Shown here: in pieces, positions 6,828 through 18,593 of the stretch | Numbering within the stretch: the first letter of the stretch is position 1 | How the letters are laid out: each line of letters starts with the position of its first letter | NCBI RefSeq assembly: GCF_000012805.1 | Contig: NC_007484.1 | Span: forward strand, 3,180,001-3,212,000 | DNA length: 32,000 nucleotides | Direction of reading: 5' to 3' | Source of the DNA: Nitrosococcus oceani ATCC 19707 | Lineage (GTDB): Bacteria; Pseudomonadota; Gammaproteobacteria; Nitrosococcales; Nitrosococcaceae | Made by a program: the position numbers and the translations under genes | Notes under the pieces: generated by a model | What the model was told of the DNA's origin: nothing | Database searches by the model: none | Seen by the model: only the letters and a program-made list of their open reading frames with translations

Positions 6828-8750
6828 TTATGACGCCTTATTTTTGTCTTCTTTGACTTCCTCAAACTCAGCGTCTACAACATCCTCTTCCGCCGCCTTG
6901 CCTTCTTCCTTTTGAGGCTGGGGCTCTTCGGCTTGTTGCGTATAAAGGCGTTCGGCCATCTTAGCAGAAGCATCGGTCAAATCCTTGATTCGAGCCTCAA
7001 TAACCTCTTTGTTATCCTCCTTCATGGCGGTCTTGAGTTCTCCAATCGTTTTCTCAATCTCGCTTTTCTCGTTGGCCTCAAGCTTATCGCCTAATTCCTC
7101 CATGGATTTTTCCGTAGCATGAATTAAGTTATCGCCTTGGTTACGGAGATCAACTAATTCCCGGAATTTGCGATCTTCTTCCACATGAGCCTCGGCATCC
7201 GAGACCATGCGCTCGATTTCACCTTCTGCCAACCCGCTGGAGGCCTTAATAACAATGGATTGCTCCTTACCCGTAGCCTTGTCTTTGGCAGAAACATTCA
7301 GGATGCCATTGGCATCGATATCGAAGGTAACCTCAATTTGGGGCATACCGCGATGAGCAGGCGGAATGCCTACTAGGTCAAAACGACCGAGGGATTTATT
7401 ACCCACTGCTTGCTCCCGCTCACCCTGGAGCACATGCACGGTTACAGCCGTTTGATTATCCTCCGCGGTAGAAAACACTTGCGTTTTCCGGGTAGGAATG
7501 GTGGTATTCTTCTCAATTAGCTTGGTCATGACACCTCCCAAAGTCTCGATACCCAGAGACAGGGGCGTCACATCCAGCAACAACACTTCCTTGACCTCAC
7601 CCCCCAGGACTCCCGCCTGAATAGCTGCACCCACGGCAACCGCTTCATCGGGATTGACATCTTTACGAGGCTCCTTGCCAAAGAATTCTTTAGCTGCCTC
7701 CTGCACCTTGGGCATCCGGGTTTGGCCACCCACCAAGATGACTTCGTCAATATCCGAGGCGCTGAGCTTGGCATCCTGAAGCGCAGTTTTGCAAGGTCCG
7801 ATAGTGCGGTTAATCAGATCCTCCACCAACGATTCCAGCTTAGCCCGGGTGATTCGGACATTGAGATGCTTGGGACCGCTGGCATCCGCCGTGACGTAGG
7901 GTAAATTAACTTCCGTTTGTTGACTAGAAGAGAGTTCGATTTTAGCCTTTTCTGCTGCATCCTTAAGGCGCTGCATCGCTAACGGATCGCCCCGCAAGTC
8001 GATACTTTGCTCTTTCTTAAATTCCTCTGCAATATAGTCAATAATCCGTTTGTCGAAGTCCTCACCGCCAAGGAAGGTATCCCCATTGGTGGACAGCACC
8101 TCAAACTGATGCTCTCCTTCCACCTCTGCGATCTCAATAATAGAAACATCAAAAGTGCCGCCGCCTAAGTCATAGACTGCGATTTTTTGATCGCCCCGCT
8201 TTTTATCCAGGCCATAGGCCAAAGCCGCCGCCGTGGGTTCATTAATAATGCGTTTGACTTCAAGACCGGCAATCCGGCCCGCATCCTTAGTGGCTTGACG
8301 CTGGGAATCATTAAAATAAGCAGGAACCGTGATAACGGCTGCTTCTACTTCTTCGCCCAAATAGTCTTCCGCCGTTTTCTTCATTTTGCGGAGCACGTTG
8401 GCCGAGACTTCCGGTGGGGCCATTTTTTTACCCGTGGCTTCCACCCAAGCGTCTCCATTGTCGGCCTTAACAATTTTATAGGGCACCATTTTAATGTCCC
8501 GCTGCACCACTTCCTCATCAAAGCGACGGCCAATCAGGCGCTTAATCGCATAAAGCGTATTTTGAGGATTAGTGATTGCCTGCCGCTTAGCAGACTGGCC
8601 CACCAATGTTTCACCCTCTTTGGTAAAGGCCACCACCGAGGGGGTGGTCCGGTCGCCTTCCGCATTCTCAATCACCCGGGGCTTATTCCCTTCCATAAGG
8701 GCCACGCAGGAATTGGTGGTCCCTAGATCAATACCGATAATCTTTCCCAT
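6828..8750 (-). CDS. dnaK: molecular chaperone DnaK (Hsp70)
   Basis: 640 aa with the [18 protein letters not shown] and [11 protein letters not shown] signatures. Confidence 0.98.
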
Positions 8751-8834
8751 GATTACGTTACTCCAAAAACTTGGTATTCATTTTCCACCGGCGGCTGCTC
8801 CCACCGGCACCTTATGCTGTACACTACGTCTAAC

Positions 8835-8861
8835 TATTGGGGCATACCCGCTAATTTCAAG
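8835..8861 (-). promoter_or_regulatory. sigma32 (RpoH)-type heat-shock promoter for dnaK
   Basis: The minus strand reads CTTGAAA-12 nt-CCCCAATA, against the E. coli-type consensus CTTGAAA-N13-15-CCCCATNT. The -35 element overlaps the grpE stop codon, and the -10 element lies about 85 nt upstream of the dnaK ATG. Confidence 0.6.
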
Positions 8862-9489
8862 CTTGAGTATCCACCCCTGCTGTGGTTTGTTCACCCGGTT
8901 TGGAAACTACGACCATGGCCGGACGTAACAGGCGGCCATTTAAAGCATAGCCTTTACGAACAACGGTAAGCACAGTGTCAGGGGCAGCCTCACTGCTCTC
9001 CTGGGTAGATATAGCCTGGTGAAAGTCAGGGTTAAAGGCTTCTCCTTGGGGATCAATCGTCTCAATGCCAAATCGGGCTGCAACTTCATTGAACATCTTA
9101 AGAATTAATTCAGTCCCTTCCCGCAAAGCAGTCACATTGGCATCTTCAGCCTGGGCTGCCGCTAATCCCATCTCTAGACTATCCTTAACCGGTAATAAAT
9201 CCTGGGCAAATTTCTCCAAGGCATACTTGCGGCCCTTTTCCAATTCCCGTTCATGGCGCCGACGCTGATTCTCCAGCTCAGCTCGCGCGCGCAGCAACTC
9301 ATTCCAATGTTCATCCGCCTTGCTGCGGGCATCCTCCAAAAGTTGCTGGACAGCCTCCAGCTCAGCAGTCTCGGGGGCTGCCTCCTGGATTTGCTCGCCG
9401 CCCTCGGCTCGCGTCTGGGATTCTACCGGATCTTCCGGCCGTTCAGACGCGACATTAGTCTCCGGAATAGTTCTCTCTTCGTTGGCCAT
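8857..9489 (-). CDS. grpE: nucleotide exchange factor GrpE
   Basis: This is a GrpE family protein (coiled-coil ...ELENQRRRHERELEKGRKYALEKFAQDLLPVKDSLE..., C-terminal beta domain ...GYALNGRLLRPAMVVV). The ORF-track start at 9504 is a TTG. The ATG at 9489 (MANEE...) has a GGAGA Shine-Dalgarno 8 nt upstream. Confidence 0.93.
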   Translation of the reverse strand: MANEERTIPETNVASERPEDPVESQTRAEGGEQIQEAAPETAELEAVQQLLEDARSKADEHWNELLRARAELENQRRRHERELEKGRKYALEKFAQDLLPVKDSLEMGLAAAQAEDANVTALREGTELILKMFNEVAARFGIETIDPQGEAFNPDFHQAISTQESSEAAPDTVLTVVRKGYALNGRLLRPAMVVVSKPGEQTTAGVDTQA

Positions 9490-9536
9490 ACCGATATTCT
9501 CCAAAATTGCTAGAGGCTTCTACCTAAAACCACAAC

Positions 9537-9565
9537 AGTTGGGGATTGTTTACTTTGAATTCAAG
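9537..9565 (-). promoter_or_regulatory. second sigma32-type promoter, for grpE, embedded in the 3' end of hrcA
   Basis: The minus strand reads CTTGAAT-14 nt-CCCCAACT. The -35 element lies inside the last hrcA codons, and the -10 element is about 50 nt upstream of the grpE ATG. Confidence 0.5.
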
Positions 9566-10599
9566 GCCGCACCCAACAACCGGGCTGTGGCATCTACTAG
9601 AGAAATTACCTGCTCATAATTCATCCGAGTGGGACCAATCACGCCAAGCACGCCCAATGCCCCTTCGGAAGAGCCATAACGGGCGGTAACTACACTGCAA
9701 TTGTCAAAGACTTGGTAGCCTGATTCTTCACCAATAAAAATTTGTATCCCCCCGGCATTCAGGCACTGATCAAGTAAGTGCAAAATATCCTGTTTCTCAT
9801 TGAAGGCATCAAACAATAGGCGCAAGCATTCTTTATCCGATAAATCTAAATAGTCCAATAAATTGGTCTGCCCTGCTACTACGCAATCTTCCGTTTCTTC
9901 TCCAGGAATAAATGCCTGTTTAGCAATTTCCAACGCCGTTTGCATGATTCGGTCCATATCTTCACGTACTTCACCCATCTCAGCCAGGAGACGGCTACGA
10001 ACAGCATGAAGATCCTTGCCTTTAAACATGGCGTTAAGATAGTTGGCCGCCTGCTGCAATTCCGCAGGGGAATAGGAGCGACCGGGATGAATAATGCGGT
10101 TTTGCACTTCTTGCTCATTCAACACTAGAATTGCCAACACGCGATTTTCTGATAGAGGCAAGAATTCCACCTGACGCAGGGCTCGGCACTCTCGCCGCGG
10201 CAACATGACTACCCCCGCAAAGCGGCTGATTTCAGACAGTAAATGGGAAGCCGTAGTCAGCAAGGCTCGAGGCTCCGCTTCAACATCAAACTGGATCTCT
10301 AGCTCGCGAATGGCGGTTACCCCTAATTGCTTAGGCCTCAGCAAAGCATCAATAAAGAAGCGATAACCTTGAACCGTCGGCACTCTACCCGCTGAAGTGT
10401 GGGGAGAAAAGACCAGTCCCAATTCTTCCAGATCGGCCATGACATTACGAATAGTCGCGGGACTAAGGTCCAACTGACTCTCTCGAGACAAAGTCCGGGA
10501 ACCCACGGGTTCCCCATCACGAATATAGCACTCCACCATGGCCTTGAGCAGGTGTTGAGAACGCTCGTTTAATACCAGTGAGTTGTTGAATTGCGCCAT
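9550..10599 (-). CDS. hrcA: heat-inducible transcription repressor HrcA
   Basis: 349 aa. The N-terminal winged helix (ERSQHLLKAMVECYIRDGEPVGSRTLS) and overall length match HrcA. The hrcA-grpE-dnaK-dnaJ order is the classical arrangement. Confidence 0.93.
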   Translation of the reverse strand: MAQFNNSLVLNERSQHLLKAMVECYIRDGEPVGSRTLSRESQLDLSPATIRNVMADLEELGLVFSPHTSAGRVPTVQGYRFFIDALLRPKQLGVTAIRELEIQFDVEAEPRALLTTASHLLSEISRFAGVVMLPRRECRALRQVEFLPLSENRVLAILVLNEQEVQNRIIHPGRSYSPAELQQAANYLNAMFKGKDLHAVRSRLLAEMGEVREDMDRIMQTALEIAKQAFIPGEETEDCVVAGQTNLLDYLDLSDKECLRLLFDAFNEKQDILHLLDQCLNAGGIQIFIGEESGYQVFDNCSVVTARYGSSEGALGVLGVIGPTRMNYEQVISLVDATARLLGAALNSK

Positions 10600-10803
10600 G
10601 AACTAGATAACACCTTGGAGTTAAATAATGAATGTTGCATGATTCCTGAGCGAGTCCGCGAATCGATGTGCCTTGCGCAGGAGCCCCGTGAAAGTTAGCC
10701 CCCGGCAGCTAACTCACCCAGCAGGGTTAGCTGCTGCTTCGAGGCATGAGAACTTCAGTCAAATTAGAAGCTCCATGATGCCAGCGCTCATGCTTATAGC
10801 AAG

Positions 10804-11535
10804 TTAATCTGGCGACGAATCAAGCTGGCGCCACAAACAAGCGCCGCCACTTGCCTTATCAATAGCCGTAAGACGAGCGTCATGAGCCATCCGTTCCTCT
10901 CTGCTTGCCCGCGCTATCGTAAGTGACGCTCGCTCGGCAGAAACAGGCCGATAATTCCCCCCTCCTACACGAAATGGAAGGCCATTGTCACCATACTCGT
11001 GCAGACTTAAACTGACCTGGCCACCCGTCATGGCTAAATATACTCCGGCCAGGATTTCCGCATCGAGGAGAGCACCATGCAGATCCCGACGAGAGTTGTC
11101 GATCCCATAGCGCTTGCAAAGAGCATCTAAGTTATTTTTTTGGCCGGGATGACGCTGCCGCGCTAGCTGCAATGTGTCCAACACTTGGCAATCAGTGCTT
11201 ATTTTCCCCCATTTAGAACCGAGCAAACACAACTCATGATCCAAAAAACCAACATCGAAAGGGGCATTATGAATCACCAACTCTGCCCCTTCAATAAACG
11301 CTAAAAATTCTTCGGCAATCTCTATAAAACGGGGTTTATCGGACAGAAATTCATTGCTCAGGCCATGGATTTTCAACGCTCCTTTATCTACCTCCCGTTC
11401 CGGGTTTAGATAACAATGAAAAGTTCGTCCCGTGCGGCGTCGGCAGCTCAGTTCAACACCGCCAATCTCAATGATTCGGTGCCCCTCTTTAGGTTCCAAT
11501 CCAGTGGTCTCGGTATCGAGTATAATCTGACGCAT
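10804..11535 (-). CDS. dnaQ: DNA polymerase III subunit epsilon (3'-5' proofreading exonuclease)
   Basis: It carries the DEDDh exonuclease motifs (ILDTETTGL, HNAPFDVGFL, HGALLDAEILA). The ATG at 11535 overlaps the rnhA TGA by 1 nt. The ORF-track start at 11538 is a GTG. Confidence 0.93.
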   Translation of the reverse strand: MRQIILDTETTGLEPKEGHRIIEIGGVELSCRRRTGRTFHCYLNPEREVDKGALKIHGLSNEFLSDKPRFIEIAEEFLAFIEGAELVIHNAPFDVGFLDHELCLLGSKWGKISTDCQVLDTLQLARQRHPGQKNNLDALCKRYGIDNSRRDLHGALLDAEILAGVYLAMTGGQVSLSLHEYGDNGLPFRVGGGNYRPVSAERASLTIARASREERMAHDARLTAIDKASGGACLWRQLDSSPD

Positions 11536-11978
11536 CACTTTTCCTCCCCGTTCGTTATTGCGCTCCGAGCCAAAGCATCAGCACGCTCGTTTCCTGGGTG
11601 TCCCTCATGTCCCCGGACCCAAAACCACTCTATCCGATGTTGGGCCGCGACCTGATCCAAACGCTGCCACAAATCTATATTCTTGACGGGTTGCCGGTTA
11701 GCTGTTTTCCAACCCCGCCGCTTCCAATTCGACAACCAGCAGGTGATCCCCTGGCGCAGATACTGGGAGTCCGTGGTCAGATGAACCCGGCATGGCCGCT
11801 TGAGCGTCTCTAGAGCCCGGATAGCAGCCATCAACTCCATTCGGTTATTAGTCGTCTTCGATTCGGCACCCGATAGAGTTTTTTCACGCCCTTGATAGCA
11901 CAACAAGGCGCCCCAACCCCCAGGACCGGGATTCCCGCGGCATGCCCCGTCGGTAAAAATCTCCACGATCTCAGTCAC
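11535..11978 (-). CDS. rnhA: ribonuclease HI
   Basis: It is collinear with E. coli RNase HI ([54 protein letters not shown]). The GTG start overlaps the upstream gene by 8 nt. Confidence 0.95.
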
Positions 11979-12741
11979 GACAACGCTCCCGAGTCGTCGG
12001 TTCTGCCAGGGCAGGCATATTTAAACTTTCCTCCTCACGCCAAAGAGGGTCTATCGGATTTAAGCGCATCACCTGCTTTTTAGCCACCACCAAATAACTT
12101 CCTGCAAAAAAAGGGTACCAGCGCCGTCCCACCTCCTCCAGGAAGCGTAAGCGCCGCATTAATCGTGGCTGCCGCAAAGGGGGACGAAATAAAAAATACC
12201 GTAATTCTACTGTTTTGAAACCCAATAAGGCCAACCAGTCCTGAATGCGTGTGAGGCTATAGAAACGGCCACACCAGGGCATACTTCCCCGCCGACATAA
12301 AATAAACCGCCAAAGCCCCCAAAAACTCCAGGGATTGAAACCTAAAATAGCCAGCGTGCCATAGGGCACCAACACCCGCTGGGCCTCCCGCAGCACCTGA
12401 TGGGGAGCCGCTTCATACTCCAAGACATGGGGCAAAATTATTCCATCCACGGTTGCATTAGCAAAGGGCAAAGCATCTATACGGGACAACAAACTAGGCG
12501 ACTGAGCCTCCGGCCAAACCTCCGCTTCCAATACTATTCGGTGCCAAATGCAGCTAGAGGAGAGCAAATCCGTTCCTCTACGTACCGCCCCTAGCTGAAC
12601 CAAATGGTAACCGAATAAATCAGGTAGAATTTTTTCCAGCTCCGCCTGTTCAGCTTTCAGCAGGCGCCTTCCGAGAGACTCATCTAACCAAGCGCAAAAA
12701 GCTTGACGAGATGAATAGTCTCTCTTATGCAAGGTATTCAT
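11971..12741 (-). CDS. class I SAM-dependent methyltransferase; the conserved gene found upstream of rnhA-dnaQ in many gammaproteobacteria
   Basis: 256 aa. It has a methyltransferase-11-like core ([11 protein letters not shown]...[16 protein letters not shown]) and is translationally coupled to rnhA. Confidence 0.75.
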
Positions 12742-13067: not shown

Positions 13068-13820
13068 CTATCCCTTTTTTTCTGTCAAGTAACCGCTCTT
13101 TTTTAAATACCGTGCGATGGCGAAAATCGTGGTCAGGAGGACAAATATAACACATAAGCCGTTGATCCAGAAGATATCTTTCTCGGTTAAAGGCAATGGG
13201 AGCGATTCATAGCCCATGACCAACAGAGCTAACACCATCCAGCTATAAGTACTGGCATAATCCTTGGCTACAGCCCGGCGCCAGTTAAACTGCATGCTCC
13301 GCAGCGTTTTTCTGAGTCCCCTCAATTGGGGCAGCCAGCGGTTTACCCGACGACAGTAATCCTGGTAATCAGCGCCAAATTTCCCTTCTAGATAGAACTC
13401 TTCAGCCATCACAATGGCTGCATAGGCGGTGAGGAAAAAACCAAGCCCCAAAATGTAGACCCACGGGTTATTGTGGATAAGAAAAAGTCCAAATAGTATC
13501 AGCAAATTGCCCAGATAAAGGGGATTTCGGCAGTGGGCGAAGATTCCCTCCCGCACTAAGGTATCGGCATGGACCCGTTTATTCAGTCCTCCCCGCTTAA
13601 TATAAGCGAGACCAATCACGGCAATGCGTACGCCCTCTCCCATGGCAGAGATGAAAAATCCAAGAATATCCATCCCCAGGCCATCATCCGTATTATCCAG
13701 CGGCGGCAAGGGGCGAAAACCAAACAGCAAGGCCACTAATACCAAAGGGAAAACAACATTACGATATTTAAAGAGAAAATTGCCATAATGGATAACAAAG
13801 GATTGGCAGGATGCCTTCAT
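13068..13820 (-). CDS. integral-membrane methyltransferase, isoprenylcysteine carboxyl methyltransferase / phospholipid methyltransferase (ICMT/PEMT) family
   Basis: It has multiple hydrophobic helices and the family signature LVREGIFAHCRNPLYLGNLLILFG...IVMAEEFYLEGKFGADYQDYCRRVNRWLP. I take the ATG at 13820 (MKASCQSF...) as the likely start. The longer ORF-track start (13988) would overlap the cmoA-like gene by about 150 nt. Confidence 0.8.
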   Translation of the reverse strand: MKASCQSFVIHYGNFLFKYRNVVFPLVLVALLFGFRPLPPLDNTDDGLGMDILGFFISAMGEGVRIAVIGLAYIKRGGLNKRVHADTLVREGIFAHCRNPLYLGNLLILFGLFLIHNNPWVYILGLGFFLTAYAAIVMAEEFYLEGKFGADYQDYCRRVNRWLPQLRGLRKTLRSMQFNWRRAVAKDYASTYSWMVLALLVMGYESLPLPLTEKDIFWINGLCVIFVLLTTIFAIARYLKKSGYLTEKKG

Positions 13821-13833
13821 GGTAGGTTTGGCC

Positions 13834-14658
13834 TCATTTAACCGCGAGAATGCCGCTGAAATTATACCAGCGGAAAAACTCCTCAACATGGCTAAATCCA
13901 ACGCTTGCCAGCAGCTCGTAGTTCTCCTCGGGACGGTAAGGAATGAGCACATTCTCCAAAGCTTCCCGTTTCCGAGCAATCTCCACATCGGAATAGCCCT
14001 GGCGCTTTTTCATATTGTAGTAGTAGCGAATAAACAGGCGATTAAACAGGCTGTCGTTCAAGGTCACTTTCTCAAAGATGATAAGACAGCCTTGCTCATT
14101 CATCCCTTCGATAAGACCTTGGAGCATCCGAGTACGGTGCAGCGGACGGATAAACTGCAGAGTCAGTATCATGATGACCACAGAAGCATCTTCGATAATC
14201 CGCTCGCGATGCAAATCAGCAGCCATAAATTCGCAGCGGCGAGTACTCTTCCGCGCCAGGAACTTTTGCCGCCCTTTCTCCAGCATTTCCAGGGAATTAT
14301 CCACGCCGATGAAGTGGACCCTGGGATCGAGGGCTGCATCGAGTCTTAAAAGCGTGGTTCCGGTCGCGCATCCTAAATCAAAAAGATTAGTCCCTGGTAC
14401 GGCAAAATCAGCAGTAATTTCCTCGGTCATCCGCTGCATTTCATCGTAGAAAGGAACAGAACGATGCACCATATCATCGAACACGGAGGCAGTGGCCCCG
14501 TCAAAACGAAAATCTTCAATAGCCGAGTTGCTTTCCGCAAATAGCTGATCGTGAAATACTCTGGAACCTTCCCCCGCGCTATCCGGTACCAGATCGGTAT
14601 CATCCACTCCTTTCATCGGTAGTCCTCTCGCAAGCGAACGCCTGAACAAACGGGACAT
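13834..14658 (-). CDS. cmoA: carboxy-S-adenosyl-L-methionine (Cx-SAM) synthase, CmoA family
   Basis: It is collinear end to end with E. coli CmoA: [62 protein letters not shown], and C-terminal [10 protein letters not shown]. An alternative start at 14616 (MKGVDD...) has a better Shine-Dalgarno (AGAGGA, 6-nt spacing) than the ATG at 14658. Confidence 0.85.
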
Positions 14659-14678: not shown

Positions 14679-15923
14679 TCAAGGAAAAAAAACACGGATA
14701 CCCGCTGTTAGGGAGACGAACTCTGGCGATAACGTTTCGGATTGGCCGTTGATCTTGACCTGGGTGTTAAAAAAGGCAGCCCGCTTGACCTCAAGGTTAA
14801 AAGCTACATTATAGCCGATAAAGTAATCAACTCCAGCACCGAAGATGGCCACAATAGAATTATCCTGACCACCAGAAAGTCCGGTGACGGAAAGCGGTTG
14901 ATCCGGATCGCCTATCTCGGCGAAACCAAGACCGGGACCTGCTAATAGATAGGGACTAAGTTTGTCATTAAGCAAAGGATAGCGAAAACGCCCTAGGGCT
15001 GAGATAGTCCATATGGGATATCCTGTAATTTTGCCAAGGACGGGCGATCGCAACTGGGTTCGGCCATAATCGCCAGCAAGCTCCACGCCCCAATGCTTAT
15101 TGAAATTCATGCCTATTGACCCACTGGGCCAAGGTCCAGATGTGCTATCGAAACTGGCCTCTGGAACAGCATTTCTATCGGTAAGAAAAGCAACGCCACC
15201 TCGCAAGCTAAGATAACCTCGCATGGCATCCTTATCCCGAGCCGGTCGCTGCTCTCCAAGCCAAGCATACTTACCCGTCGCTAGCTGATCAAGATAAACA
15301 CGCATGTTGGCCGTGACACCAACAGCATCCAAGGTAAGTTCCCGCTCCTCTGTGGAAATTGAGATTTCAGGATGAAAGCCGAAATAATATTTTGCTTCGA
15401 CTCCAAGGGCAATATTATCTGTTATAAAATATTCAGCGCCGCCACCAACCACCCCCAGAGGCACTGTGTCGCTACCGCCCCCCGTAAAGGAGAAATCCTC
15501 ACGGCCGCTAAATTCTCCGATACCGATACCACCACCCGCCAATAAGTAGGGAACCAGCCGATCCTGGAGTAACGGGTAGCGGAATCTTAACTGGCCTAGC
15601 CAAGTCGTTGTAGCGTAGTCCCCTGCCTTTTTGCCAGAGGTTTGCAAAAGGTTGGTTTTAATATAATCGTAGGCAAATTCAATGCCCCAGTAGCGCCCTA
15701 GATCCGCGCCTAAGGTGGCACCAATATGGGGTTCTTCCGAGGGGGATTCAAGGCGCACATCAGAGACCGCATCGGGTTTCGTATAATTATAAAAAGAGTT
15801 TTCGAACCCCAATCGAGGTTGTAAATAAGGGCGGATACCAGCTAGCTCGTTAGCTTGAACGGTTAGTGGCATCAATACAAGCAGCAAAATCGTTATGGAA
15901 AATAGATTATGTTTACTACTCAC
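14679..15923 (-). CDS. outer-membrane beta-barrel protein (OmpA/OmpW-like OMP_b-brl type) with an internal tandem duplication
   Basis: It uses a GTG start and has the signal peptide SSKHNLFSITILLLVLMPLTVQA/NE. Alternating-hydrophobic beta-strand patterns run through the protein, and the C-terminus (RVFFP) ends in aromatic residues. The two halves align with each other (see findings). Confidence 0.8.
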   Translation of the reverse strand: MSSKHNLFSITILLLVLMPLTVQANELAGIRPYLQPRLGFENSFYNYTKPDAVSDVRLESPSEEPHIGATLGADLGRYWGIEFAYDYIKTNLLQTSGKKAGDYATTTWLGQLRFRYPLLQDRLVPYLLAGGGIGIGEFSGREDFSFTGGGSDTVPLGVVGGGAEYFITDNIALGVEAKYYFGFHPEISISTEERELTLDAVGVTANMRVYLDQLATGKYAWLGEQRPARDKDAMRGYLSLRGGVAFLTDRNAVPEASFDSTSGPWPSGSIGMNFNKHWGVELAGDYGRTQLRSPVLGKITGYPIWTISALGRFRYPLLNDKLSPYLLAGPGLGFAEIGDPDQPLSVTGLSGGQDNSIVAIFGAGVDYFIGYNVAFNLEVKRAAFFNTQVKINGQSETLSPEFVSLTAGIRVFFP

Positions 15924-16060
15924 AAATACTCTCTTTATTTTTCATCTTCTACCATTTGTTCACTATAGGATAGCCTATTTATTATTAATACTTTGGATTT
16001 CTTGCTACAGCTCTTTGCCATGTGATCGCGTAAAGCTTGTGTTATTCGTTGGTAAGCCTT

Positions 16061-16264
16061 TTATCCTTCCCCCTCCCGGTCCAGAAATCTACAATCAAGC
16101 GGTGTATTAAAAGTGATTGTAATGAATGTCCGCAGCCGGGGTAGTTGTTTTCCCATGAGGAGCGATTGGGAAGAGCCTTTTATCAGCACCGGAATGATGG
16201 GGATTGGAAAATCCTCTAACAGTAGGCCGATTCCTTGCTTATTTAAAGAGTTGAAATTTGCCAC
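16061..16264 (-). pseudogene. relic of the C-terminal third of a lysophospholipid (PlsC-type) acyltransferase
   Basis: The 67-aa GTG-initiated ORF contains ...KQGIGLLLEDFPIPIIPVLIKGSSQSLLMGKQLPRLRTFITITFNTPLD. This resembles the K-G-hydrophobic...PI(I/V)PV.I.G...G...PR...V.F..P block at the C-terminal end of PlsC-family enzymes. The upstream sequence shows no HxxxxD or FPEGT N-terminal part in any frame. Confidence 0.4.
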
Positions 16265-16828
16265 TAACTAAATAGGCAGAACAATAAATCGAAAAACCCG
16301 AGGGCTAAGATTAGTGCTGAGCATGTAGGGATCAGGATGAATTCACCGGAAGCCCAAAACCAAAATTCAAGAATAAAACCTGAAGCCGTAAACTAGCCAA
16401 ATTAGTCGTTTTTAGGTAGTCAGGTACTATAAAAAAGCTTAGGTGAGAGCAAAATAATAGCTAAATGAGGTTATTTTTAGAGGACGGAAAACCAATTTTC
16501 CCCTCATGGCCTAAAAAAATGAGGCCGTCACGGGCCAGTATCGGATACCGGGTAAGTTTAAGATTAAGAGCATCCGCTCCAAGGGGATGAATATTCGTTC
16601 TCACGCGGTAGGGATTCGCTATGAAGATGGTGAACGCAGGCTGAAGACAGGCTGATTATTTTTCATTCTGGCGAGGATAAATTCTCACCGAAGTTAACGT
16701 CCTCGACCTCTGTCTCAGACTCATCCGAAACCAAATATATTAATATTCTTAACATTCTATATAAAATTGAAACTGCAGCTCTCTTAAAACGCGCTATACT
16801 TTCACTAAAATCTACAGCAAAATCCGCC

Positions 16829-17470
16829 ATGGAGAAAATAGCGAGCACCTCTGATATCATTCTTGATACTGCCTTGGAACTGGCCGAAGAAACTTCTTGG
16901 GAGAATGTGCGCCTGTATCACGTTGCCCAACGGGCAGGATTGACTTTAAACCATATTCGCCGCTATTTCAGGGAGAAAGAAGAACTGGTGGACGCATGGC
17001 TGGATCGAGCTGACCGGGCCATGCTGGATGAAACAAACTGTCCTCACTTCTTGGCCCTCTCTCCTCGAGAGCGCCTAAATCAGCTATTTATGGCATGGCT
17101 GGAAGCTCTCTCTCCACACCGCCCGGTGATGCGCCAAATGGTATTTAACCGGCTCGAACCAGGCCACCTTCATATGCAGGTGGCAAGCCTATTACGCATC
17201 AGCCGCACGGTGCAATGGGCTCGGGAGGCCGCTCAACGGGAGCAAACCTTTCTATTTCGGGCGTTTGATGAAACTGCTTTGACCTCCACCTACCTGGCCG
17301 CTTTTCTCTGTTGGCTAAATGATTCCACCCAAAATTATCAAAGAACCCGTCGATTACTCGATAGAATACTGTATCTAGGCGAAGTCATAGAGTCTCTTAA
17401 ACCCTCGTTCCTGCGACCCTACCAACCGGAAGAAAATTTCACGCCGGCTCCGCCCCAAGAGGCCCGTTAA
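16829..17470 (+). CDS. TetR/AcrR family transcriptional regulator
   Basis: 213 aa with an N-terminal TetR HTH (ILDTALELAEETSWENVRLYHVAQRAGLTLNHIRRYFREKEELVDAW). Confidence 0.85.
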   Translation: MEKIASTSDIILDTALELAEETSWENVRLYHVAQRAGLTLNHIRRYFREKEELVDAWLDRADRAMLDETNCPHFLALSPRERLNQLFMAWLEALSPHRPVMRQMVFNRLEPGHLHMQVASLLRISRTVQWAREAAQREQTFLFRAFDETALTSTYLAAFLCWLNDSTQNYQRTRRLLDRILYLGEVIESLKPSFLRPYQPEENFTPAPPQEAR

Positions 17471-17543: not shown

Positions 17544-18593
17544 ATGGACACACTCACCCATGCTTTAAGTGGTGCGCTGCTAGCTCGCGCCACTGCCTCT
17601 TCCAAGCAACCAACCGGCCAGCTCAGGGTAGGAGAGCGAGTGCTCCTGGGCGCCTTGGCTGCGACTTTTCCGGATAGCGATTTTATTCTCCGTTGGACTA
17701 CCGACCTGCTTACTTATCTTAATCTGCATCGAGGAATTACCCATTCCGTAGTCATGCTTCCCATATGGGGAGCGCTGCTAGCTACCCTATTTTGGCGGCT
17801 TCGGGGAAAGCAAAAACCTTGGCAAGTATATTTCGGCGTGTCCCTATTAGGAATAAGCATTCATATCGCCGGAGATGTTATCACCGCTTATGGCACCCAA
17901 ATTTTCGCCCCTCTCTCCAATTACAAAGCAGCTTGGCCCACTACTTTCGTCATTGACCCTTGGTTTACCGGTATTATTGTCATTGGATTATTGGGCTGCT
18001 GGTATTGGCGCCATTCCCGTCTACCCGCAGTAATAGGCTTAGCTATATTGGCAGTCTATGTGGGATTTCAGGGGATGCTTCGAGCGCAAGCGCTAGCATT
18101 GGGTCATGAGTATGCCCGCCAACAATCACTAGCCAACATCCGAGTTCATGCTCTACCTCAGCCCCTGTCCCCTTTTAATTGGAAAATTGTGGTAGCGGCG
18201 CCTCAAAAATATTACGTTAGCCAGGTTAACCTTCTGCGCAAACAGATCCCGGTTCCTGCGCTGCCCAATTCCCCTTTTTGGGTTGGCCTTTATACAGCCT
18301 ATCCGCCGCTAACTGCTATGAAGTGGACGCAGTACCAACGGTACGGGAATTCCAATGAAGAATCTTTGGCCCGCACCGTTTGGCAGCAGGAGATTTTGCA
18401 AGGTTACCGCCAATTTGCGCAGCTCCCAACTCTTTATGCCATCGACCGGAAGGCTGGCCGCCTGTGCGTCTGGTTTGTAGATTTACGCTTTATTCTCCCT
18501 AACCTTATTCCACCGTTCCGTTATGGAGGTTGCCGCCAAGCGCAAGACTCTGGTTGGGAGCTACGCCAATTACCCGGAACTCCTGGCGCTTAG
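17544..18593 (+). CDS. membrane-bound metal-dependent hydrolase, YdjM/YbcI (DUF457) family
   Basis: The N-terminus reads MDTLTHALSGALLA...FPDSDF...HRGITHS, with His/Asp metal ligands. Four to five TM helices are followed by a soluble extension of about 150 aa. It lies 73 nt downstream of the TetR gene, so the two probably form an operon. Confidence 0.8.
   Translation: MDTLTHALSGALLARATASSKQPTGQLRVGERVLLGALAATFPDSDFILRWTTDLLTYLNLHRGITHSVVMLPIWGALLATLFWRLRGKQKPWQVYFGVSLLGISIHIAGDVITAYGTQIFAPLSNYKAAWPTTFVIDPWFTGIIVIGLLGCWYWRHSRLPAVIGLAILAVYVGFQGMLRAQALALGHEYARQQSLANIRVHALPQPLSPFNWKIVVAAPQKYYVSQVNLLRKQIPVPALPNSPFWVGLYTAYPPLTAMKWTQYQRYGNSNEESLARTVWQQEILQGYRQFAQLPTLYAIDRKAGRLCVWFVDLRFILPNLIPPFRYGGCRQAQDSGWELRQLPGTPGA

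Follow-up and report, generated by a model that had tools for sequence, protein, structure and literature searches.

This work concerns two adjacent genes in a 32,000-nt stretch of the Nitrosococcus oceani ATCC 19707 genome (contig NC_007484.1, positions 3,180,001 to 3,212,000; the whole stretch is called the window, and coordinates are counted from its first base). One encodes a CmoA-type protein, by sequence a synthase of carboxy-S-adenosyl-L-methionine (Cx-SAM), and the other, directly behind it, encodes an integral membrane enzyme of the ICMT/PEMT fold. We will argue that the pair is a module in which the membrane enzyme probably serves as a Cx-SAM-dependent carboxymethyltransferase acting on an envelope lipid. 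The features of the locus are as follows.

14679..15923, minus strand: gene for an outer-membrane beta-barrel protein (OMP), with two stretches matching Pfam OMP_b-brl (86.7 bits)
13834..14658, minus strand: cmoA, by sequence a Cx-SAM synthase; open reading frame (ORF) of 274 aa, or 260 aa from the NCBI start at 14616 (M15)
13821..13833, minus strand: 13-nt spacer between cmoA and the membrane gene, read directly as TGA-ggccaaacctacc-ATG
13068..13820, minus strand: membrane enzyme of the ICMT/PEMT fold, LmtA-like, 250 aa, with its ATG at 13820; matches Pfam PEMT
15924..16828, no strand: AT-rich intergenic region between the OMP gene and a divergent tetR-like gene, GC 0.43 versus about 0.51 for the window

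This arrangement agrees with the original prediction, made from the letters of the window alone, which had placed the cmoA stop 13 nt before the ATG of a membrane gene of about 250 aa and an OMP barrel gene 20-60 nt before cmoA on the same strand; the latter distance is 20 nt from the ORF start of cmoA or 62 nt from the NCBI start. A longer ORF at 13068-13988 (306 aa) is a mechanical upstream extension of the membrane gene, which is 250 aa long also in independent gene calls of four other N. oceani assemblies. Both proteins have NCBI entries of identical sequence: 'carboxy-S-adenosyl-L-methionine synthase CmoA [Nitrosococcus oceani]' for the CmoA-like protein (100%) and an N. oceani 'methyltransferase family protein' for the membrane protein. 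Since the 13-nt spacer, as read, lacks a strong Shine-Dalgarno sequence, cmoA and the membrane gene are probably translationally coupled.

The first gene encodes, on sequence grounds, a Cx-SAM synthase. Its product aligns end to end with CmoA of Escherichia coli (4GEK, E 1.5e-41; also 4IWN) and with YecO of Haemophilus influenzae (1IM8, E 2.4e-44), and passes the NCBIfam model TIGR00740 with 220 bits against a cut-off of 193.3, over model positions 2-239 of 239. The predicted collinearity with E. coli CmoA, KRxxLENV block included, was thereby confirmed; the C-terminal pattern NF.S..A.K given with it was a trivial slip, as it fits E. coli (NFGSLVALK) and not N. oceani (NFSGILAVK). TIGR00740 is passed as well by the CmoAs of Brocadia (246.5 bits) and Adhaeribacter (261.1 bits) and by one linked to a fusion gene described below (219.9 bits), and the narrower E. 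coli-type model NF011995 is failed by the N. oceani protein (150.7 bits versus 285). According to Byrne et al. 2013 (PMC3663124), who list the residues with which CmoA holds its cofactor, Arg199 pairs with the carboxylate of Cx-SAM in a salt bridge, and ordinary methyltransferases do not conserve it. We aligned N. oceani CmoA with 77 CmoAs encoded beside a gene for the membrane enzyme. Arg199 (E. coli numbering) corresponds to R231 in N. oceani and is an arginine in all 77 pair-linked CmoAs covering the column, and Y39, D62, G64, D89, F137 and E164 are unchanged throughout the 78 sequences. As for the other SAM (S-adenosyl-L-methionine) contacts, D117 is conserved, S66 is replaced by A, and N132 by I in N. 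oceani and by I, V, L or T across the clade. The residues expected of a Cx-SAM-forming enzyme are thus largely retained, at 48-67% identity of the pair-linked CmoAs to N. oceani CmoA and 32-41% to E. coli CmoA.

The membrane partner had been described beforehand as a protein with many transmembrane helices and an ICMT/PEMT signature, REGIFAHCRNPLYLGNLL...EEFYLEGKFGADYQDYCRRVNRWLP, and this was borne out by profile, model and fold. It matches Pfam PEMT (PF04191) with 39.9 bits against a cut-off of 25, over residues 85-150 only (66 residues), as do all 39 family members tested, and it fails the cut-offs of Pfam ICMT (PF04140; 17.8 bits versus 24) and NCBIfam ICMT (NF040696; 43.8 bits versus 160). 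The best NCBIfam match is LmtA (TIGR04571) in 39 of 39 members, with 88.3 bits over about 190 of the 250 residues in N. oceani, and none comes near the cut-off of 325 bits. The protein is therefore not an LmtA orthologue, although LmtA is by sequence its closest characterised relative. An AlphaFold2 model built on 39 homologues (pLDDT 86, pTM 0.83) is an all-helical membrane protein with six helices, for which Foldseek returned Ma-ICMT (4A2N) as the top PDB match, with a probability of 1.00 and a target-normalised TM-score of 0.54, followed by ICMT 5V7P and then by membrane steroid 5-alpha-reductases and sterol reductases, which share the fold. The family profile aligns to the S-adenosylhomocysteine-binding part of 4A2N (residues 113-193, E 3e-8). 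The loops bearing the conserved motifs are rich in lysine and arginine (six in residues 72-99, ten in residues 145-182, four in the C-terminus), the other loops being neutral or acidic; the active site is therefore predicted to lie on the cytoplasmic face, where Cx-SAM is made.

A residue comparison of the linked family, including members fused to chorismate mutase, with seven unlinked paralogues and two ICMTs separated a shared core from family-specific positions. R65, G92, R98, P100, Y102, E140/E141 and R161 are shared with the cofactor region of ICMT, the N. oceani motif being RNPLY...AEE (RHPxY...EE in ICMT). The family-specific invariants are N21, an inserted Y73-I74-x-R76 in a basic loop, G78, H96, N105, W180, K186, Y188 and K240, and position 139 is Ala or Gly in the linked family and Arg, Lys or His in its relatives. 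Among these, R76, H96, K186 and K240 are candidate residues for holding the Cx-SAM carboxylate, a role played by K91, Y200 and R315 in CmoB and by a key arginine in CmoX.

Conservation of the adjacency in related genomes, on which the original prediction had made its idea depend, was found from both sides of the pair. Starting from the membrane gene, we surveyed one genome per GTDB species, taking the best 80 of at least 561 relatives with 10-kb flanks. In 77 of these 80 genomes, from at least 11 phyla, cmoA lies directly upstream on the same strand, overlapping the membrane gene or separated from it by at most 42 nt; one of the 77 loci (L047) carries a frameshift. The lineages include Gamma-, Alpha-, Beta- and Deltaproteobacteria, Gemmatimonadota, Nitrospirota, Planctomycetota (Brocadia among them), Acidobacteriota, Eisenbacteria, Verrucomicrobiota and Bacteroidota, and further Armatimonadota, Hydrogenedentota and Krumholzibacteriia. 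In the remaining three, cmoA is cut by the contig start (L053), there is no room upstream (L061), or the locus is a true exception (L072). The pair is intact, with a 4-nt gap, in a cultured Bacteroidota isolate, Adhaeribacter radiodurans (CP055153.1). Starting from cmoA, we surveyed 80 contigs from JGI metagenomes carrying relatives of the N. oceani-type CmoA. The membrane gene follows directly or within 500 nt in 55 of the 61 assessable contigs and is missing in six that have at least 600 nt of downstream sequence; of the others, 17 end too soon and two are ambiguous. A profile search of 1.84 billion cluster representatives recovered 326 clusters of the membrane family (50% identity) at E <= 1e-30, and a homology search seeded from Bacteroidota gave 3206 proteins, of which the best 120 matches include Chitinophagaceae and Adhaeribacter and do not include Chitinophaga pinensis or Dyadobacter fermentans. 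The pair-linked CmoAs did not form a clade apart in a neighbour-joining tree of 160 CmoAs, in which E. coli and H. influenzae were the only CmoB-linked references; unlinked copies were scattered inside the linked radiation. One of the two ambiguous contigs (L153, with 328 nt after cmoA) gives a BLAST match to a fusion-type chorismate mutase domain and has no detectable membrane domain, which may be another arrangement of the three functions.

A link between the pair and prephenate, the co-substrate of CmoA and the product of chorismate mutase, emerged when all neighbouring ORFs of the 80 genomes were clustered. A recurrent neighbour is a fusion gene of CM_2 (chorismate mutase) and DAHP_synth_1 (Pfam scores of 62-76 and 247-256 bits). 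In 11 loci, which represent at least four phyla (Gemmatimonadota, Acidobacteriota, Eisenbacteria and Krumholzibacteriia), it immediately precedes cmoA in the same orientation. In the exceptional L072, from the metagenome-assembled genome (MAG) 'bacterium STL-ARS1', the same fusion gene (8682-10726) stands directly upstream of the membrane gene and abuts it. No gene family is conserved with the pair as a third partner across the 80 genomes. The connection is closer still in five proteins among the best 150 of the 326 clusters (P0423, P0426, P0430, P0432 and P0467), in which the membrane domain is itself fused to a C-terminal CM_2 domain (56-66 bits, cut-off 27). On the two contigs encoding P0426 (L173 and L174), the fusion gene is followed after 31 nt by cmoA, which keeps the arginine of RKREALENV. 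A cytoplasmic C-terminal chorismate mutase domain agrees with the topology predicted for the membrane enzyme, and the fusion ties the membrane enzyme itself to Cx-SAM production. An ordinary SAM-dependent methyltransferase would have no evident reason to be fused to chorismate mutase, which suggests a Cx-SAM-dependent one. As a separate observation, in the loci encoding this fusion of membrane enzyme and chorismate mutase a gene of the FabA/FabZ-like hotdog fold comes right after cmoA (L173:3118-3867); its best NCBIfam matches, FabZ and the LpxC/FabZ fusion, are below cut-offs.

Taken as a two-gene system, the module would carboxymethylate a lipid of the membrane or envelope. Cytoplasmic CmoA would convert SAM and prephenate to Cx-SAM, as the E. 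coli enzyme does, a step that the sequence supports. The six-helix ICMT-fold enzyme might then take up Cx-SAM instead of SAM in its cytoplasmic-face pocket and pass the carboxymethyl moiety (+58 Da) on to a nucleophilic group of an inner-membrane lipid. The last and weakest step concerns the acceptor. Because LmtA is the closest characterised relative and the operons of some family members serve lipid A modification, it would most likely be lipid A, at an anionic oxygen of a phosphate that would become a phosphoglycolate-type diester; alternatively, the acceptor could be an amine, be it of an aminolipid, of phosphatidylethanolamine or of undecaprenyl-phosphate-4-amino-4-deoxy-L-arabinose (Ara4N).

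The logic of such a system has precedents. Every known consumer of Cx-SAM (CmoB, TglF, MccB-CTD and CmoX) is encoded beside a CmoA homologue, and the four known uses of Cx-SAM, in tRNA, two natural products and phage DNA, all depend on soluble Rossmann-fold enzymes. Ordinary methyltransferases, too, are able to accept Cx-SAM (PMC7496830). With CmoA/CmoB of E. coli, whose genes overlap, the N. oceani pair shares the first enzyme, by sequence, and the order of a donor synthase followed by a dedicated transferase. It differs in that CmoB is a soluble Rossmann-fold enzyme with a CmoB N-terminal domain, whereas the N. oceani partner is an integral membrane protein of the ICMT fold. In TglE/TglF (3-thiaglutamate), MccS/MccB-CTD (a Bacillus McC-like antibiotic) and phage CmoA/CmoX (5-carboxymethylcytosine in DNA), a CmoA homologue likewise stands beside a transferase, CmoB-like or not, that uses Cx-SAM on something other than tRNA, and TglF, MccB-CTD and CmoX were found by the same gene-neighbourhood reasoning as used here. 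Being soluble class I (Rossmann) enzymes whose substrate is a peptide, a nucleotide or DNA, they differ from an all-helical membrane enzyme with a presumed lipid acceptor. Because of these systems, the claims that CmoB is the only characterised Cx-SAM consumer and that the N. oceani pair would represent a second, non-tRNA use of Cx-SAM are outdated; what it would represent is the first membrane-embedded, non-Rossmann use. What is new, then, is the membrane ICMT-fold partner, the breadth across phyla and the dedicated prephenate supply, and what is known is the pairing of a CmoA homologue with a transferase. No previous description of a pair of cmoA and a membrane ICMT-type gene was found in the literature searched. 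On the side of the membrane enzyme, ICMT/Ste14 (4A2N, 5V7P) has the fold and the C-terminal RxPxY...EE...R core in common with the N. oceani protein, but neither ICMT nor PEMT has an obligate linkage to cmoA or chorismate mutase, unlike the N. oceani-type family. CaaX-prenylated proteins are generally absent from bacteria. Like the N. oceani protein, LmtA of Leptospira, which methylates lipid A (lipid A Kdo2 1-phosphate O-methyltransferase), is a polytopic, ICMT/Ste14-like membrane protein; it uses SAM, and the N. oceani-type family has invariants of its own, including the inserted YIxR at 73-76 and A139. No linkage of LmtA to cmoA is known.

An account by ordinary tRNA biosynthesis, in which CmoA supplies a CmoB encoded elsewhere for the formation of 5-carboxymethoxyuridine (cmo5U) and the membrane methyltransferase is an unrelated neighbour, is essentially excluded. 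NCBI and HAMAP-style pipelines do annotate the protein as CmoA, and cmoA and cmoB are not always adjacent, stand-alone cmoA genes being known. However, the adjacency, found in nearly all of the surveyed genomes, which span 11 phyla or more, and frequently with a stop codon that overlaps the next start, is not explained by chance or vertical inheritance, and an unrelated neighbour would hardly be fused to chorismate mutase. No cmoB was detected in the 32-kb window with E. coli CmoB as a tblastn query (best E 0.74), as had been predicted, and one cmoA is present; no CmoB-like ORF was found in any of the 160 related loci (80 from genomes, 80 from metagenomes). For the whole genome we rely on Sakai et al. 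2019 (PMC6599085, Suppl. Data 2), who tabulated xo5U genes for 584 organisms and scored N. oceani as TrhO 0, TrhP 0, TrhP1 0, TrhP2 0, CmoA 1, CmoB 0, TrmR 1 and CmoM 0. By this published profile, N. oceani appears to lack both the tRNA carboxymethyltransferase CmoB and the enzymes forming 5-hydroxyuridine (ho5U). The substrate of the membrane enzyme thus cannot be ho5U-tRNA, which CmoB modifies in E. coli, and the module cannot serve tRNA cmo5U synthesis; nor would a canonical cmoB elsewhere account for the CmoA, a case for which the original prediction had allowed. CmoA without CmoB occurs in only five of the 584 organisms, the others being Dyadobacter fermentans, Chitinophaga pinensis, Ochrobactrum anthropi and Methylobacterium nodulans, and several Alphaproteobacteria are scored CmoB 1/CmoA 0. 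Rhodopirellula, Gemmatimonas and Acidobacterium, which represent pair-carrying phyla in the table, are without CmoB, which again speaks against a role in tRNA modification.

Two further explanations keep the pair together but assign the membrane enzyme another reaction. It could be an ordinary SAM-dependent O-methyltransferase of the ICMT/LmtA type that acts in the same pathway as CmoA, for example by methyl-esterifying a carboxymethyl group set by an unlinked carboxymethyltransferase, as CmoM does on cmo5U. Its cofactor core does not differ from that of SAM-dependent ICMTs, which typically methylate carboxylates or phosphates, the conversion of cmo5U to its methyl ester mcmo5U provides a precedent, and the paralogues that follow the membrane gene in some loci, together with the tandem fusion P0378 (see below), show that two such enzymes can act serially. 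We nevertheless regard this, the chief rival, as unlikely, because a third enzyme would be needed, and neither another family conserved with the pair in the 80 genomes nor a CmoB-like ORF in the 160 loci is there to supply it; the module consists of just two genes in most loci, and the chorismate mutase fusion ties the membrane enzyme to Cx-SAM production. Alternatively, CmoAs of this clade might make another SAM derivative or another product from prephenate, or the membrane protein might use prephenate- or chorismate-derived material directly. NADPH-dependent membrane reductases have the ICMT fold too, the steroid 5-alpha- and sterol reductases being among the fold matches, chorismate mutase is fused to the membrane protein and not to CmoA, N132 of E. 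coli is not conserved, and NF011995 was failed by a wide gap (150 bits versus 285). Such chemistry seems very improbable to us, since the remaining cofactor contacts and Arg199 are invariant and TIGR00740 is passed, the SAM-binding RxPxY...EE core is kept and ICMT outranks the reductases in the fold search; the fusion to the membrane partner also fits a membrane-localised metabolon channelling a scarce cofactor.

That the membrane enzyme is a Cx-SAM-dependent carboxymethyltransferase acting on an envelope lipid therefore seems to us the probable reading. The proposed carboxymethylation of an envelope substrate has comparative support, in the pairing, the residues and the prephenate link, and several points weigh on the other side. 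We infer Cx-SAM use by the membrane enzyme from gene linkage alone, and the transfer of the carboxymethyl group remains the conjectural part of the prediction. The residues of the membrane enzyme named above for the extra carboxylate are candidates only, and RNPLY, which we had considered as a family signature, was dropped as not diagnostic because it is also present in unlinked downstream paralogues. L072 has the membrane gene and chorismate mutase with no cmoA within 10 kb. Conversely, genomes of Methylospira and Methylococcaceae contain close CmoAs (65-69% identity) encoded on their own, so that the N. oceani type of CmoA also exists outside the pair. That the N. oceani genome has no cmoB is taken from the database profile cited above. 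The remaining objections concern lipid A: neighbours of the Arn, LAB_N and LpxR kinds are confined to about 10% of loci, chiefly in Planctomycetota, which makes the lipid A assignment weak; the literature searched yielded no carboxymethylated lipid, be it lipid A or another; and a carboxymethylated phosphate would keep its negative charge, unlike known lipid A modifications, so that the physiological rationale is weak. A text match to 'cmoA' in a Coxiella lipid A paper was discarded, being the medium 'cMoAb'.

What points to the envelope, and tentatively to lipid A, is the kinship with LmtA and the company that some members keep. In the complete genome of Ca. Brocadia pituitae, the pair stands in the order response regulator, histidine kinase, LAB_N, cmoA, PEMT, two ArnT-like (GT39) genes, ArnB, ArnC, ArnA and ArnD. 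ArnA (1092 bits, cut-off 777) and ArnD (401 bits, cut-off 382) pass their cut-offs, and ArnB (597 bits, cut-off 631) and ArnC (521 bits, cut-off 529) fall below theirs; since the first two pass, the Brocadia pair heads a genuine arn lipid A modification operon. Comparable neighbours (ArnT-like, LAB_N, GT2 and DegT) are present in about 10% of all loci, namely in other Planctomycetota and a small number besides. Beside the pair of one gammaproteobacterial lineage (L088) stands a homologue of LpxR, and two-component systems lie within 10 kb of the pair in 14 of the 80 loci. The OMP gene upstream of the pair in N. oceani and N. watsonii likewise points to the envelope. If the membrane enzyme is a Cx-SAM-dependent carboxymethyltransferase, there is perhaps an even chance that lipid A is its acceptor. 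The wider proposal is that an integral-membrane, Cx-SAM-dependent transferase carboxymethylates an envelope lipid, most likely at a phosphate of lipid A, and that this is a widespread and unrecognised envelope modification in at least 11 phyla; it strikes us as somewhat more plausible than its negation.

If this proposal is right, Cx-SAM chemistry would reach lipids, giving a new modification of head groups or of lipid A that brings in a new carboxylate (+58 Da), and the main use of Cx-SAM outside Proteobacteria would be an envelope lipid and not tRNA. The module would operate in nitrifiers, anammox bacteria, methanotrophs, Gemmatimonadota, Acidobacteriota and soil Bacteroidota, with its own prephenate supply in some lineages, and the retention of CmoA in organisms without CmoB would be explained. 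The new carboxylate could be a handle for further derivatisation, as in phage CmoX/CmoY. In public databases the two proteins are annotated as 'CmoA' or 'tRNA (cmo5U34)-methyltransferase' and as 'Ste14' or 'lipid A phosphate methyltransferase', and thousands of genes annotated automatically in this way would need re-annotation. The pair concerns environmentally important organisms, Nitrosococcus, Brocadia, Nitrospira and Methylobacter, whose envelope chemistry is poorly known.

Several family members and loci show additional genes or domains. In four loci (L025:1551-2210, L055:10719-11378, L069:1888-2547 and L035:10727-11425), a second, divergent ICMT/PEMT paralogue follows directly and overlaps the end of the linked gene, and P0378 (507 aa) is a tandem fusion of two ICMT/PEMT domains. 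By analogy with CmoM on cmo5U, the second enzyme could carry out a further modification step such as methyl-esterifying the new carboxylate. L055 (CAMCBY010000007.1, labelled 'MAG: Klebsiella pneumoniae') has the order cmoA-PEMT-PEMT2 of the Pseudomonadota MAG loci L025 and L069 and is probably mis-binned or mislabelled. A member of 442 aa (P0442) carries one more hydrophobic segment and, at its C-terminus, a domain of the OmpA family (peptidoglycan-associated), another tie to the envelope. In A. radiodurans, the pair is followed (L171:11026-20723) by a LEA_2-like gene, an AMP-binding (adenylate-forming) ligase gene, TamB-like genes and an Omp85 gene; this ligase is reminiscent of phage CmoX/CmoY, where the carboxymethyl group serves as the handle for an amide ligation. 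In Methylospira mobilis (CP044205.1; L005:6514-9807), where cmoA stands alone, its start falls on the final base of glgA, and a gene for the polyphosphate kinase PPK2 comes next; L088, too, has a PPK2 gene (1269-2141), at a distance of 7 kb from the pair.

Around the pair in N. oceani, the OMP gene is probably co-transcribed with cmoA, as judged from the sequence: no terminator-like site was found by scanning between the OMP gene, cmoA and the membrane gene. The region 15924-16828 is presumed, by position only, to hold the promoter of the OMP-cmoA-PEMT unit; promoter-like matches there were no commoner than in shuffled sequence, and neither the promoter nor the terminator scans of the locus gave anything above chance. 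The same order of OMP gene, cmoA and membrane gene is found in N. watsonii. No OMP homologue lies beside the pair in the 80 other genomes, which makes the association Nitrosococcus-specific, and the OMP was rejected as a member of the module on account of its absence from the other surveyed loci. A class I methyltransferase gene at 11971-12741 (minus strand) was likewise rejected, having no homologue near the pair in other genomes. It overlaps rnhA (11535-11978, minus strand), which in turn overlaps dnaQ (10804-11538, minus strand), and it belongs with that cluster, whose order resembles the yafS-rnhA-dnaQ neighbourhood of E. coli. On the other side, the divergent TetR-family gene (16829-17470, plus strand) has a weak C-terminal match to COQ9, a lipid- or quinone-binding domain (PF08511, 19.1 bits versus a cut-off of 20.5; TIGR02396, 34.9 bits), and is followed by a gene for a YdjM inner-membrane protein (17544-18593), both genes being syntenic in N. 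watsonii.

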